A DNA stretch of 46,770 nucleotides from Chiloscyllium plagiosum (taxonomy: Eukaryota), in contig NC_057718.1 in the NCBI RefSeq assembly GCF_004010195.1, forward strand, positions 42,310,584-42,357,353, in the 5' to 3' direction. This document shows, piece by piece, positions 1 through 46,770 of the stretch (the first letter of the stretch is position 1; each line of letters opens with the position of its first letter). A model generated the notes under the pieces. It was given only the letters and a program-made list of their open reading frames with translations, ran no database searches and had not been told where the DNA came from. Made by a program: the position numbers and the translations under genes.

Positions 1-59
1 GAGGACGAAGGGAGATGAGATAGGTGTGGAGGGGAAGAAGGAACTAGGATCTAGAGAAC

Positions 60-330
60 AGGTTTAAATGGACTGGTAAGAAAAATCAAATGCACATTAG
101 CAAAAACTATTTTTATACAGCAGATGATTGCAATCTTGAATCCTCTGCTGAAAGGATGGTGGAGGCTGATTCAATTATGGCTCTCAAATACAAACATCTG
201 AATGGGAAAATATTTTTAGAGTACAAGGAAGGGTGTGGTTGAGACTTGTTAAATTGCTTTTGCTGATTGTTGACTCGGGCTTGATGGGCTGAACAACCCT
301 TTTCTGTGTTGTACCCATTCTATGTTTCTA
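60..330 (+). mobile_element. Decayed CR1-type LINE 3' end
   Basis: Degenerate ORF2 C-terminus (GGATGGTGGAGGCTGATTCAAT) and 3' UTR (GATGGGCTGAA...TTCTGTGTTGTACCCATTCTATGTTTCTA) resembling other CR1 tails in the window. Confidence 0.65.
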
Positions 331-11020: not shown

Positions 11021-12279
11021 TAGATTAGAGTGGTTCTGGAAAAGCACAGCAGGTCAGGCAGCATCCGAGGAGCAGGAAAATCGATGTTTTGGGCAAAGGC
11101 CCTTCATCACGATAGAGGCAAGGAGCCTCCAGGGTGGAGGAATAAGTTGGGGAGTGGGGCTGGGNNNNNNNNNNNNNNNNNNNNNNNNNNNNNNNNNNNN
11201 NNNNATGGAGGTGATAGGTCAGAGAGGAAGGTGGGGGAAGGTAGCAAAGAGTACAATAGGTGAATGGGGATGGGGATGGAGGTTCAGAGGGGAGGCTGGA
11301 GCAGATAGGTGGGAAGGTAGATTGATAGGTAGGACAGGTCATGAGGACAGTGCTGAGCTGGAAGGTTGGAACTGGGGTAAGATGAGGGGAGGGGAAATGA
11401 GGAAACTGGTGAAGTCTTCATTGATGCTCTGTGGTTGAAGTGTTCCAAGGCAGAAGATGAGGCGTTCTTCCTCCAGGCGTCGGGTGGTGAGGGAATGGCG
11501 GTGGAGAAGGCCCAGGACCTGCATGTCCTCGGAAGAGTGGGAGGGAGGGGGTTGAAATGTTGGGCCACGGGACGGTGGGGTCGATTGGTGCAGGTGTCCC
11601 GGAGATGTTCCCTGAAGCGCTCTGCGAGGAGGCGTCCAGTCTCCCCAGTGTAGAGGAGACTGCATCGGGAGCAACGGAAACAATAAATGACATTGATGGA
11701 TGTGCAGGTGAAACTTTGATGGATGTGAAAGGTTCCTCTGGGGCCTTGGATGGAAGTGCAGGAGAGGTGTGGGCACAGGTTTTGCAATCCCTGCAGTGCC
11801 AGGACCGGAGGATGCATTGTTGGAGGGCGTGGACCTGACCAGGTTGTCACGGAGGGAACGGTCTTTGCGGAAAGCGGAAAGGGGTGAGGAGGGAAATATA
11901 TCTCTGGTGGTGGGGTCCATTTGGGAACATCTCCGGGACACCCGCACCAATCAACCCCACCACTAAGTAGCCCAACATTTCAACTCCCCCTGCCACTCTG
12001 CCGAGGACATGCAGGTCCTGGGCCTCCTCCACCGCCGCTCCCTTACCACCCGACGCCTGGTGGAAGAACATCTCAACTTCCGCCTCAGAACACTGCAAAC
12101 CCAGGGCATCAATGTGGTCTTCACCAGTTTCCTCATTTCCCCTCCCCCCACCTTAACCCAGTTCCAACCTTCCAGCTCAGCATTGTTCTCATGACCTGTT
12201 ACTGCCTGACCTGCTGTGCTTTTCCAGCACCACTCTAATCTAAACTCTGGTTTCCAGCATCTACAGTCCTCACTTTTGC
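11021..12279. mobile_element. Penelope-like element insertion with inverted structure and GIY-YIG endonuclease remnants
   Basis: Minus strand: NVIYCFRCSRCSLLYTGETGRLLAERFREHL...RRLEEERLIFCLGTLQP. An inverted partial copy lies on the plus strand (11921-12279). Flanking direct repeat GTTGCTAGATTC at 11009-11020 and 12283-12294. Confidence 0.9.
11165..11204. other. Assembly gap (40 N)
   Basis: Run of N. Confidence 1.
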
Positions 12280-14789: not shown

Positions 14790-15005
14790 TGTGAGAAAGT
14801 GAGGACTGCAGATGCTAGAGCTTTATCAGAGTTGAGAGTGTGTTGCTGGGAAAGCATAGCAGGTCAGGCAGCATCCGAGGAGCAGAAGAATTGACATTTT
14901 GGACATTCAGTTTGATGGAGGGCTTATGCCCAAAACGTTGATTCTCCTGCTCCTCAGATGCTGCCTGACCTGCTGTGCTTTCCTAGCAACACACTCTCGA
15001 CTCTC
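14790..15005. mobile_element. Palindromic non-autonomous Penelope-terminal element
   Basis: Arms GAGAGTGTGTTGCTGGGAAAGCATAGCAGGTCAGGCAGCATC / GATGCTGCCTGACCTGCTGTGCTTTCCTAGCAACACACTCTC with a decayed hammerhead motif at 14912-14940. Confidence 0.8.
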
Positions 15006-15714
15006 ATGATTATGTGCTGGGTTCAGAAAGAATGGCATATTTTGGAGTTCTAAGGTCCAGTCATATTTCTGTCCTGAAGACATTAGTGGGCTGTATGTAC
15101 TTCACTTGCCTGGTAACTATGCTGTACCCTTAAAATCTGACTCCATTACGTATTTTTATCAGCAGTAAACAAGTCCAACCTAGTGAGACAACCTTCAAAA
15201 CCTGTATAGAGTGCACCAAAATAATTTGCTACTATAGGACACAAATAAAAAGATATTTGGATTTACTTCCTTCATGATTAGCAGATCTACCAGTAGTCAA
15301 CTAGTGTGTCTTTAAGAAACCAGTCTCTCTTTCTGATTCCTTCCTCCATGAAAATGCCTTAGGTCATTAGCCAACATTCCCATAGGCCCAAATTAATGCA
15401 TGTCCATCACCAAGTTGCCTCTGTGGCTACAACTGGCATTTACAATCATAACAAATGATTCTGTCTTTAGATACATGCATCATGTGTTACATCCAGAATA
15501 TACTCCAAAGTGGCCCTAGTAGAACTGTTAAGTCTCATTTTCCACTGTACATAATCATTTGCATAAAATTGAAGTATTTTATTTTGAAACTTAAATGTGA
15601 CATTACATTATTACTTTACTGAACTGATAACACACTACAATTAATGCTCAAGAATAGCAACAACTATATACTGCATACAAATGTATACAAGAGGTATTAA
15701 AGATAATGACTTAC

Positions 15715-17300: not shown

Positions 17301-18141
17301 CCACCTGTTGAGCTAACTATGAGATCTCTGTCACCTCTTTAAATACCAACCAAATGACTTTAGCTACTAATCCACTCAACAGATGGATGTGTTGTCACTA
17401 TATGCTCAATCAAAACAGAGGACAACAGTCATAACATTTCCAACCATTTTCTTATAATTAAAATTTCTCATCACTGGAAACATCTTGGAAAGACTCCATT
17501 GTACTCATTCAGAGGTCTTGTCATCTTTCCTGAAATGTGGTTCTCAAAACTGACCACATTACATTAGCCGAGGTACAATTAATGAATTATAAAGATCTAG
17601 TACAATTTCTTTTATATTCTATTTCTCTATTTATAAATCCCAATGATTCTTTTAAAACCATCTTTTCTTGTCCTATTACCTTTAAGGATTTGTGTATATG
17701 ACCGCCAAGATATCCCTGATCATTAAGAACTTTCAATTTGTGCCATTTATGGGATACATTCCTTTTCAAGTTACATCTTCCCACTTCACTTCACACTTCT
17801 CTGCACTCAATTCAAATCACCACAGTTTTGACCATTTCACTATCTTCTCTATATCGCCTTGAAACCTATAATTATTATCTTGGCTACATACCAAGTGGAA
17901 AAGTTTCACAACATCTGGAAATTTTATAATGCATTGCACTATACCCAAGTCTAGGTCATTTATAAACCTTCAAAAGGTCAATGGACTCAAAACTGATCCT
18001 TGGGAAACACCACACCAAACTACCTCTTAATTGGAAAACCATTCATCCAGCACCACTATCACACTTTGCTCCCTGTCACTGAGCTAATTTTGTATCCAAA
18101 CCATTACTTCCTCTTGAGTTGCCTGGGCTTCAATCCCCTTC

Positions 18142-18237
18142 TGATTCCTGAAGAAGGGCTCATGCCCGAAACGTCGATTCTCCTGCTCCTTGGATGCTGC
18201 CTGACCTGCTGCGCTTTTCTAGCAACACATTTTCAGT
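18142..18237 (+). mobile_element. 96-bp Penelope-terminal insert with 13-bp TSD
   Basis: TTCAATCCCCTTC at 18129-18141 and 18238-18250. Confidence 0.85.
18144..18180 (+). ncRNA. Minimal (PLE-type) hammerhead ribozyme motif, complete core
   Basis: CTGAAGA(18148-54)-A-GGGC-TCAT-GCCC-GAAACGTC(18168-75). Palindromic ACGT helix III, with putative cleavage after C18175. Helix I is weak. Confidence 0.7.
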
Positions 18238-18315
18238 TTCAATCCCCTTCAGCCTTCAATGTGGCATTTTGTCAAATGCCTAATGAAAACCCACATATAC
18301 AATAATTTCTATCCT

Positions 18316-18440
18316 GCCTAGATGAAGGAGTGGTGCTCCGAAAGCTAGTGCTTCCAAATAAACCTGTTGAACTATAACTTGGTGTTGTGCGATTTTTAAC
18401 TTTGTCCATCCCAGTCCAACAACGGCACCTCCAAGTCATA
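18316..18440 (+). mobile_element. Terminal repeat of a second Penelope-like family with hammerhead motif
   Basis: CT(A)GATGA-A-GGAG-TGGTG-CTCC-GAAAGCTA followed by AATAAACCTGTTG. Confidence 0.65.
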
Positions 18441-19491
18441 GACCAACATTCTCTGTTATGTCATCAAAGAGTTCAGACAAGTCAGTCAGAGATTATTTAC
18501 CTTTAAAAGTTTCATGCTGGTTTTTCCAAATGCAAGTTTATTTTATTTCAGATAATGCTTTCTAATAATTTCCTCACCATCAACGTTAGGCTGACTGGCC
18601 TTAGTTTCCCAATATATTCCTTCTCCCTTTGTAGAGCAATGATGTAACATTAACTCTCCCAGTTTTTCCATCACTTCTACATCTTACAAGGTTTGAAAAA
18701 TTGTGATCAATACCTCTGCCATCTCTACTTTTATTTATTTCAGCAACTTTAGATGCATTCTATCTGAACTAGGTTAGTTGCCAATTTCCAGTAGAGGTTA
18801 AGCATTTTAGATAATTCTCCCCATCTATTATTATCCCAACTATAACTGCCCTCTCCACTTTTAATATAATCATCATTATCTTTGAAGATAATGATACCTA
18901 TCAATGTAATACTTTATCCATGCCCTGTAACTTAATATAAAGTTTTCCTTTTGACTCCTTAATAGGCTTAACTACTTATGCACACACATATATAAAATAT
19001 TTAAGGATCCAACTTAATATTGCCCTTTTTATCTTATGACCTTTTGTCTTTTGTAAAATTCCTTTATTGCTAGTTTCCAAATCTTCCAGATTATAAAATG
19101 AATTTTGCTTTTGGAATCTGTCAAAGTGTCCCTTTTCTATTTTACTTTAACTTTTTTATTTCTTTTTTTCTATCTATGCTCTTTGACTGATATAGATCTT
19201 TATATTTGGTAATCATAATATTTTGCTAGGAAGGGAATTAGTGCTAATAAAACTACAATAAAATGCTTTCAATGAAATTGATCACTGCTCAGACCCTAGG
19301 TTTGAAGGCGTTGCGAACACTATAAACCAATAGCTAAACATTTCATTCCCAAGCTTACAAGTACAAAAAAGTTTATTGTTTTGTTCACAGATTTGAATTA
19401 CTGAACTGAATTGAATGGCTGTTATATAAATTGACATACCAAACACACACAGATTAAAAAAAAAACTTTTGTTTGTTACAAACTTTGTAAT

Positions 19492-19963
19492 ATTGTTGCC
19501 AGGGTTGGAGGATCTGAGCTACATGGAGAGGCTGAACAGGCTGGGGCTGTTTTCCAAGGAGGGTCGGAGACTGAGGAGTGACCTTATAGAGGTTTACAAA
19601 ATTATGAGAGGCATGGATAGGATAAATAGGCAAATCTTTTCCCTGGGGTCAGGGAGTCCAGAACTAAAGGGCATAGTTTTAGGGTGAGAGGGGAAAAATA
19701 TAAAAGAGACCTAAGGGGCAACTTTTTCATGCAGAGGGTGGTACGTGTATGGAATGAGCTGCCAGAGGATATGGTGGAGGCTGGTACAATTGCAACATTT
19801 AAGAGGCATTTGGATGGGTATATGAATAGTAAGGGTTTGGAGGGATATGGGCTGGGTGCTGGCAGTTGGGACTAGATTATGTTGGGATATCTGGTCGGCG
19901 TGGACGGGTTGGACCGAAGGGTCTGTTTCCATGCTGTACATCTCTATGACTATGACTCTATGT
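19492..19963 (+). mobile_element. Young CR1 3' end
   Basis: LPGLEDLSYMERLNRLGLFS..RRLRSDLIEVYKIMRG, RVVRVWNELPE..TFKRHLDGYM and a CTCTATGACTATGACTCTATG tail. Confidence 0.92.
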
Positions 19964-20296: not shown

Positions 20297-20520
20297 AAGT
20301 CAAAGTGTGGCGCTGGAAAAGCACAGCAAGTCAGGCACCATCTGAGGAGCAGGAGTGTCGAGGTTTTGGGCATAAATCTTTCATCAACATTCCTGATGAA
20401 GGGCTTATGCAAGAAACATAGACTCTCACTTTCATTGGATGCTACCTGACTTGCTGTGCTTTACCAGCGCCACACTTTTCGACTCTGACTCTTCAGCATC
20501 TGCAGTCCTCACTTCCTCTC
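20297..20520. mobile_element. Palindromic Penelope-terminal element with back-to-back hammerhead remnants
   Basis: Inverted arms AAAGTGTGGCGCTGGAAAAGCACAGCAAGTCAGG / CCTGACTTGCTGTGCTTTACCAGCGCCACACTTT around the centre TTCATCAACATTCCTGATGAAGGGC. Near-TSD AACTTTT(T)ACT. Confidence 0.82.
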
Positions 20521-23067: not shown

Positions 23068-23392
23068 TCAGAAAGTGGGGCGCTGGAAAAGCACGGTTGG
23101 TCAGGCAGTATCTAAGGAGCAGGAGAGTCGACATTTCGAGCAAAAGCTCTTACTCAGGAATGTAGCCGGGGCCCAAGAGGCCTCAGAGATAATGGGAGGG
23201 GGGTGGGGCTGGGGCAGGTAGCTAGGAATGTGATAGGTATATGAGGTTGGGGGGTGATGGTGATAGGTTGGAGCAAATAGGTGGGAAGGAAGATGGATCG
23301 ATAGGATAGTTCAAAGGGGCAGTGCTGAGTTGGAGGGTTGGACCTGGGAAAAGGTGGGAATAGGGGAGCTGAGGAAGCTGGTGAAATTGACA
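23068..23392 (-). mobile_element. Penelope 3'/terminal fragment with hammerhead remnant
   Basis: Co-linear with 11025-11415. Minus strand reads CTGAGTA-A-GAGC-TTTT-GCTC-GAAATGTC at 23157-23130. Confidence 0.8.
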
Positions 23393-46420: not shown

Positions 46421-46770
46421 TGTCATAGAGTCATGGAGATGTACAGCATGGAAACAGACCCTTCGGTCCAACCCATCCATGCCGACCAGATATCCAAACC
46501 CAATCTAGTCCCACCTGCCAGCACCCAACCCATATCTCTCCTAACCCTTCCTATCCATATACCCATTCAAATGCCTCTTAAATGTTGCAATTGTACCAGC
46601 CTCCACCACATCCTCTGGCAGCTCATTCCATACACGTACCACCATCTGCGTGAAAAAGTTGCCCCTTAGGTCTCTTTTATATCTTTCCCCTCTCACCCTA
46701 AACCTATGCCCTCTAGTTCTGAACTCCCCGAGCCCAGGGAAAAGACTTTGTCTATTTATCCTATCCATGC
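46421..46770 (-). mobile_element. Young CR1 3' end running off the window
   Basis: ORF 46541-46768, nearly the reverse complement of 19610-19960. Confidence 0.92.

Follow-up and report, generated by a model that had tools for sequence, protein, structure and literature searches.

What is a 96-bp insert with a complete hammerhead motif doing in the remains of a LINE in a shark genome, and is it a mobile unit in its own right or a piece left behind by a larger element? The window analysed here, a stretch of 46,770 bases of Chiloscyllium plagiosum DNA, contains the 13-mer TTCAATCCCCTTC exactly twice, at 18129 and 18238, and the insert between the two copies measures 96 bp (18142-18237). The first-pass annotation had described a 96-bp insert with a perfect 13-bp target-site duplication (TSD), and this description stands. 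The site is made up of the following features:

17874..18318, minus strand: decayed LINE reverse transcriptase, host of the insertion (tblastn with and without the insert; query RVT_1)
18129..18141, no strand: left TSD copy, 13 bp, present just once in the run X5 contig that has the empty site
18142..18143, plus strand: junction bases TG, belonging neither to the TSD nor to the element, which reads TC
18143..18180, plus strand: minimal type I hammerhead (sequence, descriptor scan and the criteria given in PMC4209133; candidate ribozyme)
18144..18236, plus strand: Penelope-like end repeat / 5′ leader segment, identical at 91/93 positions to L031 and 90/93 to L039, and bounded according to the boundary statistics
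18238..18250, no strand: right TSD copy, exact repeat of the 13-mer

The duplication may be 15 bp long, starting at 18127, with one substitution in the right copy. The bases at 18127-29 read G-C-T against G-T-T at 18236-38 and, because target and element both read G-C-T, an overlap that recurs in several other tail-less copies, a later C-to-T change may account for the difference. When the insert and one TSD copy are deleted, tblastn returns a single continuous LINE reverse transcriptase match (residues 61-171, E 2e-22), which the filled site splits into two pieces. The proposal that the insert is nested in an old CR1 is thus borne out as far as a decayed LINE reverse transcriptase is concerned; we take the host to be probably of CR1/L2 type, a label that does not distinguish CR1 from L2.

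Is this a true insertion, and how old is it? Contigs of four runs were compared over window positions 17500-18900. An orthologous empty site with a single TSD copy had been anticipated and was found: a single 273-nt contig, from run X5 of organism B, passes straight from 18128 to 18238, lacking the 109 bases that make up the insert and one TSD copy. Because organism B has this empty site, we regard the insert as a true retrotransposition insertion. In organism C, a contig of run X7 passes from the left flank to 18166 and a contig of run X11 from 18216 into the right flank; they contain just 25 and 22 insert bases, as expected where assembly halts at repeats, and a contig of the own-species run X2 breaks likewise, at 18167. 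The flanks of organism C differ by 13 letters in 667 (around 2%) and those of organism B by 19 in 500. The insertion is present in organism A, probably present in C and absent in B. It is young and likely predates the A-C split, so that the earlier claim of a recent insertion needs tempering: the site is empty in organism B, but organism C, with its roughly 2% flank divergence, probably also has the insertion, and as one shared with a second species the insertion is young only in relative terms. It is also usable as a presence/absence marker, with A and probably C filled and B empty.

The core of the hammerhead reads just as the first-pass annotation wrote it, from C3 at 18148 through C17 at 18175, with each element in place: the extra A at 18155, helix II at 18156-59/18164-67, GAAA at 18168-71, the palindromic ACGT at 18171-74 and the predicted cut after C18175. 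Helix I (18143-47/18176-80) has four pairs around a U-U mismatch, one of them supplied by chance by the G of the junction TG. The motif resembles the minimal hammerheads of Penelope-like elements (Cervera and De la Pena 2014, PMC4209133) in its type I core, the extra base between 9 and 10.1, G10.1-C11.1, the palindromic 15.2-16.2 pairs (here within ACGT), the short helix I and the occurrence mostly as single motifs from truncated elements, and the assignment to the Penelope type is confirmed on these sequence criteria as that source sets them out. Its helix II has 4 bp, compared with 7-8 in the Schistosoma families of the same study, whose available text names no sharks. In a descriptor scan that requires helix II, this is the only intact minimal hammerhead of the window, in agreement with the earlier statement that no other copy there has an unmutated core. 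The descriptor gave 0 matches in 3 base-shuffled replicates of 656,887 bases. Among its 192 matches, which are dominated by one family, the extra base is present in all 192 and a Watson-Crick 15.2-16.2 pair in 153, and the matches from other families have different helix II pairs. The Rfam covariance models returned no hammerhead match at E≤1 in the window and do not detect this motif.

Taken with helix I, the hammerhead covers around 40% of the insert. Because the remaining 56 bases are sequence of the element's end repeat, calling the 96-bp unit essentially just a hammerhead was an overstatement. Standing alone as a monomer, its helix III having a loop of zero length, the hammerhead is predicted to be silent, that is, to have no activity. 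Minimal hammerheads of Penelope-like elements are described as mostly single copies from truncated elements, with inactive monomers and weak dimers (PMC4209133), and hammerhead activity has been described as protein-dependent in the anole element PAc (PMC11167929). When two units were cofolded, the active dimer was not the lowest-energy state, although a simple cofold is uninformative for a protein-assisted ribozyme. That the 3′ end, UUUUCAG, pairs with the catalytic core once the monomer is folded was also considered and dropped as evidence (z 0.04; the older subfamily differs there).

Where do the rest of the insert and its many relatives come from? The 3.56-Gb genome contains 7,325 exact matches to a hammerhead 33-mer and 48,236 to a 31-mer that lies further downstream in the end repeat. 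The L031 copy, to which the insert is identical at 91 of 93 positions, lies behind a GIY-YIG fragment. Some copies run upstream, via a pyrimidine-rich UTR, into GIY-YIG and reverse transcriptase (RT) coding sequence, and others carry on downstream, across a 36-nt tail and into the beginning of that ORF. The end repeat stands downstream of sequence that codes for RT and GIY-YIG in L039, L031 and L037 and directly upstream of the ORF start in L032 and at 109 exact tail-to-ORF junctions, and because it flanks the ORF on both sides we regard it as pseudo-LTR-like. The long ORF has its first ATG around 35-37 nt past the tail. RVT_1 (E 6e-8) and GIY-YIG (E 5e-3) are found in L039, and GIY-YIG in L037 (E 5e-5) and L031 (2e-4), all in broken ORFs, the L039 and L031 domain matches being slightly under the Pfam cut-off. 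No intact autonomous copy was seen among the loci inspected, L039 being broken and partly masked. As the end repeat adjoins RT and GIY-YIG coding sequence in longer copies, the Penelope origin claimed for the insert is upheld. The ends of the tails, a pyrimidine run followed by TAG, resemble a 3′ splice site (L032 minus strand, L171-L200).

In L031, L037 and L039, a CX4CXXC linker precedes the GIY-YIG domain. A CX2-5CxxC motif between RT and endonuclease is described for the Neptune clade and also for Nematis and Naiad (PMC8557442). The linker points to an element of probable Neptune type. EN+ Penelope-like elements of that type (PMC8557442, PMC3846280) share with the shark element the RT and C-terminal GIY-YIG of long copies and the linker, as well as an end repeat on both sides of the ORF, an optional 36-nt tail, head-to-head pairs and a TSD. 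The form known from these sources is a truncated insertion with a pLTR, an optional 30-40 bp tail and an inverted partner. The shark copies differ in being extremely short and very numerous, with 5′ ends piled at one point, and in TSDs of mostly 13-17 bp compared with 8-10 bp in the rotifer examples of the same sources. In the literature searched, a scope exclusive of subscription journals, supplements, Repbase and Dfam, no paper describes the shark family or 5′ ends that halt at one fixed point by the edge of the hammerhead; the supplements of the cited papers may list shark elements.

The boundaries of the copies are informative about how such short pieces arise. Positions are counted from C3 = 0 (window 18148). 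The sample consists of 85 arms in the first 4.9 Mb of one contig, taken from the first 100 31-mer matches listed (14 lie beyond 4.9 Mb and one more was left out); the anchor ends at +88, so earlier 3′ ends are invisible in it. The 3′ ends fall into two classes, 46 at +88..96 and 39 at +119..126 with none between, that is, at two sites around 36 nt apart, and the 96-bp insert uses the upstream one. By class, 43 arms are short with an inverted partner, 23 are short and solo, 13 are UTR-extended and 6 are masked. The short arms begin at -6..0 in 32 of 66 cases and at the cut site (+27..29) in 2, and since so many start near the front edge of the core and so few at the cut site, the ends are not determined by ribozyme cleavage. 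Among the sampled arms, none has its start between -14 and -38. Junctions vary by single bases between copies, and a TSD was found for 49 of the 66 short arms, mostly of 13-17 bp (with a permissive finder, no shuffled control and paired arms counted twice). The layout of the 96-bp copy, solo, tail-less and starting at -6..0, is shared by 7-8 of the 85 arms, which extrapolates to roughly 4,000 genome-wide. The segment 18144..18236 itself begins at the common 5′ boundary, which lies 4 nt ahead of C3, and finishes at the upstream one of the two 3′ end sites, the tail being absent.

Other observations converge on the same edge. In raw reads over a UTR-bearing copy, a hammerhead 5′ loose end lies at -4 (one among the 6 loose ends listed; part of its count comes from a subfamily with different upstream sequence, agreement 0.46), and 9 opposite-strand joints among the 15 joints listed start at -5..0, with none of those listed at the cut site; 364 loose ends and 465 joints exist besides. 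At 16 of 30 tail-to-ORF loci, judged by eye, a fresh copy with its start at -8..-1 comes after an ORF-start fragment, as would be expected if RT jumps template on arrival there. The 29 unmasked tail-to-ORF copies all end before the UTR; two that were called at -10 are, by eye, inverted-arm sequence. The ORF-start fragments at 16 of these 30 loci (L171-L200) end at +188..201, just inside the ORF, a possible third site of priming or template landing. At L096:1315-1353, many raw-read joints jump back 31-36 bases, corresponding to tandemly repeated tails, and in the inverted insertions L034, L048 and L083 a short stub is paired with an arm that extends a long way into the UTR or ORF, a single TSD enclosing the two.

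How, then, was the insert made? We consider it very probable that this end-repeat match is a likely dead-end product of the target-primed reverse transcription carried out by an abundant endonuclease-bearing Penelope-like element itself, and not a separate mobile unit. The biochemistry on which the model draws is that of PAc, a Poseidon element of the green anole, in which RT starts at two internal sites bracketing the tail (Frangieh et al. 2024, PMC11167929); in the same account, both target strands are nicked and extended, sequence past the start sites is needed, RNA that has not been cut serves as the main template and hammerhead cleavage is unnecessary. The shark copies resemble it in their two putative internal RT starts bracketing the tail, the uncut hammerhead in the copies and the use of both strands. 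They differ in that the PAc ORF begins inside the hammerhead, with the start sites within the ORF (PMC11167929), whereas the first ATG of the shark element lies around 37 nt past the tail, and in that the shark element looks Neptune-like. The GIY-YIG domain would nick both target strands 13-15 nt apart, as the anole work (PMC11167929) and the TSD suggest. RT would then prime within the element RNA at the upstream start site, just past TTTTCAG, where the 3′ ends are observed, probably aided by a 3-nt match to the target; priming at the second site would yield copies with the 36-nt tail, and the two 3′ end classes fit the two internal RT starts known for Penelope elements. Read-through of the uncut hammerhead, which is shown, would be followed by a halt at the observed boundary, which lies 4-5 nt ahead of the catalytic core; the most likely cause is that the RNA starts there, at the Initiator-like TCATTC. 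Repair would finally ligate the stub end to the target, leaving the TSD, and if both nicks were primed the result would be the head-to-head pairs that are the dominant form of the family. The stub probably cannot be copied again, because it is without the sequence downstream of the start sites that the protein of the anole element needs.

The 5′ edge is likely an RNA 5′ end, because it is one-sided, lies beyond the fold and is the place where template jumps occur. It coincides with TCATTC, a match to the consensus of the Initiator, a short and common motif. Initiators have been reported in pLTRs (PMC2377424, PMC3846280). The base before the 5′ boundary is G in 1,015 pattern matches and another base in 2,303, the non-G bases being around 60 C, 27 A and 13 T by eye among the first 100 matches listed; these counts do not establish a cap-derived G, since at the 30 loci inspected the inverted arm or the target was often the source of the G. 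Put together as a tentative account, in which our confidence falls somewhat short of even, the element RNA would start at the Initiator 4 nt before the core, and RT primed at the first internal site would run off after around 95 or 130 nt, much as LTR elements yield strong-stop DNA, the stub then being inserted, paired with a second one or passed on by a template jump.

Three other explanations have to be weighed against these data. It is unlikely, though worth serious thought, that the insert is an ordinary 5′-truncated copy of a full-length RNA on whose 3′ repeat it was primed, with the pile-up at the edge due to RT stalling or repair and not to an RNA end. Truncation at the 5′ end is described as typical of such elements (PMC8557442), the 13 UTR-extended arms show that RT can cross the edge, and junctions often use microhomology. 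Nevertheless, a fold would be reasoned to block RT on its 3′ side, while the edge lies on the 5′ side, already crossed; the starts are spread to one side only, breaking off sharply near -5 and leaving the gap from -14 to -38; and the 29 unmasked tail-to-ORF copies stop short of the UTR. We give next to no credence to the idea that the unit is defined by template ends which the hammerhead, cleaving in a dimer, would produce: the 341 genomic matches that start at the cut site by pattern, and the contig inversion joints that in some cases involve 18176, could speak for it, yet the family has 48,236 anchors to set against these 341, inversion joints and local duplications account for most of the 30 inspected, the insert keeps 32 bases upstream of the cut, and hammerhead mutants are described as inserting in vitro all the same (PMC11167929).

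The possibility that comes closest to the first-pass annotation, a self-propagating, SINE-like mini-retrozyme with masters of its own, which its hammerhead would process and Penelope RT would mobilise in trans, appears to us highly improbable. Thousands of copies share the layout, to judge from the 7-8 arms in 85; non-autonomous pLTR-derived retrozymes are known in vertebrates, one chondrichthyan included (bioRxiv 10.64898/2026.07.22.740005); and pLTR sequence is described as enough for mobilisation in trans in a rotifer (PMC3846280). The non-LTR retrozymes of animals (bioRxiv 10.64898/2026.07.22.740005) are likewise non-coding and pLTR-related, with type I hammerheads and dispersed monomers, but as described there they are tandem repeats with at least two hammerheads, and retrozymes need these tandem motifs, whereas the insert is a single copy with a TSD and with ends that the RT start site determines. 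Among the loci inspected, the unit nowhere formed a clean tandem array, and the arrays in L031, L032 and L071, considered as retrozyme masters, proved to be separate insertions or local rearrangements. The ends lie off the cut site and are ragged by single bases between copies. No private variants were seen either, in a small sample whose size would let a hidden short master escape notice: two of three positions are informative, and the three main types are common, in similar proportions, to short arms (23/17/7 of 53) and UTR-extended arms (9/5/3 of 18). The claim that the 96 bp form a mobile unit of their own is therefore not supported; they are a sub-segment of the end repeat, with variable boundaries, ends off the cut site and variants common to long copies.

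If the run-off account is true, the hammerhead would be a 5′-terminal switch that removes the capped first 32 nt and not a maker of template ends, and the tens of thousands of shark stubs would amount to a map, drawn in vivo, of where Penelope elements prime, run off and jump. The single insertion, one among those tens of thousands, is ordinary and of little import. The family statistics have a modest value of their own for specialists in retroelements: they carry the two-start-site model over from a single Poseidon system, studied in vitro, to an element of Neptune-like kind as it occurs in vivo, they show that the hammerhead is uncut in templates, and they point to a candidate RNA start at its front edge that can be tested.

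Besides the insert, the window contains seven other, more decayed family matches at E≤2e-7 and one weak match; an older subfamily of the element is represented by head-to-head pairs at 14825-15007 and 20302-20478 and by single arms at 11027-11112 and 23071-23161. A different family lies only 70 bp from the 96-bp insert:

18321..18433, plus strand: stub of a second high-copy family with a core-damaged, related minimal hammerhead (depth and loose ends; intact examples at other loci)

The hammerhead of this second family has a helix II of GGAGC/GCTCC type and an AGCT palindrome, and the stub is a separate event. Elsewhere in the genome, further minimal-hammerhead families have a helix II of 7 bp and, where A is the extra base here, a T; the motifs together show at least three Penelope-like families. 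Finally, window positions 19632-19951 and 46429-46748 form an inverted pair of another young repeat, 93% identical and 26 kb apart.
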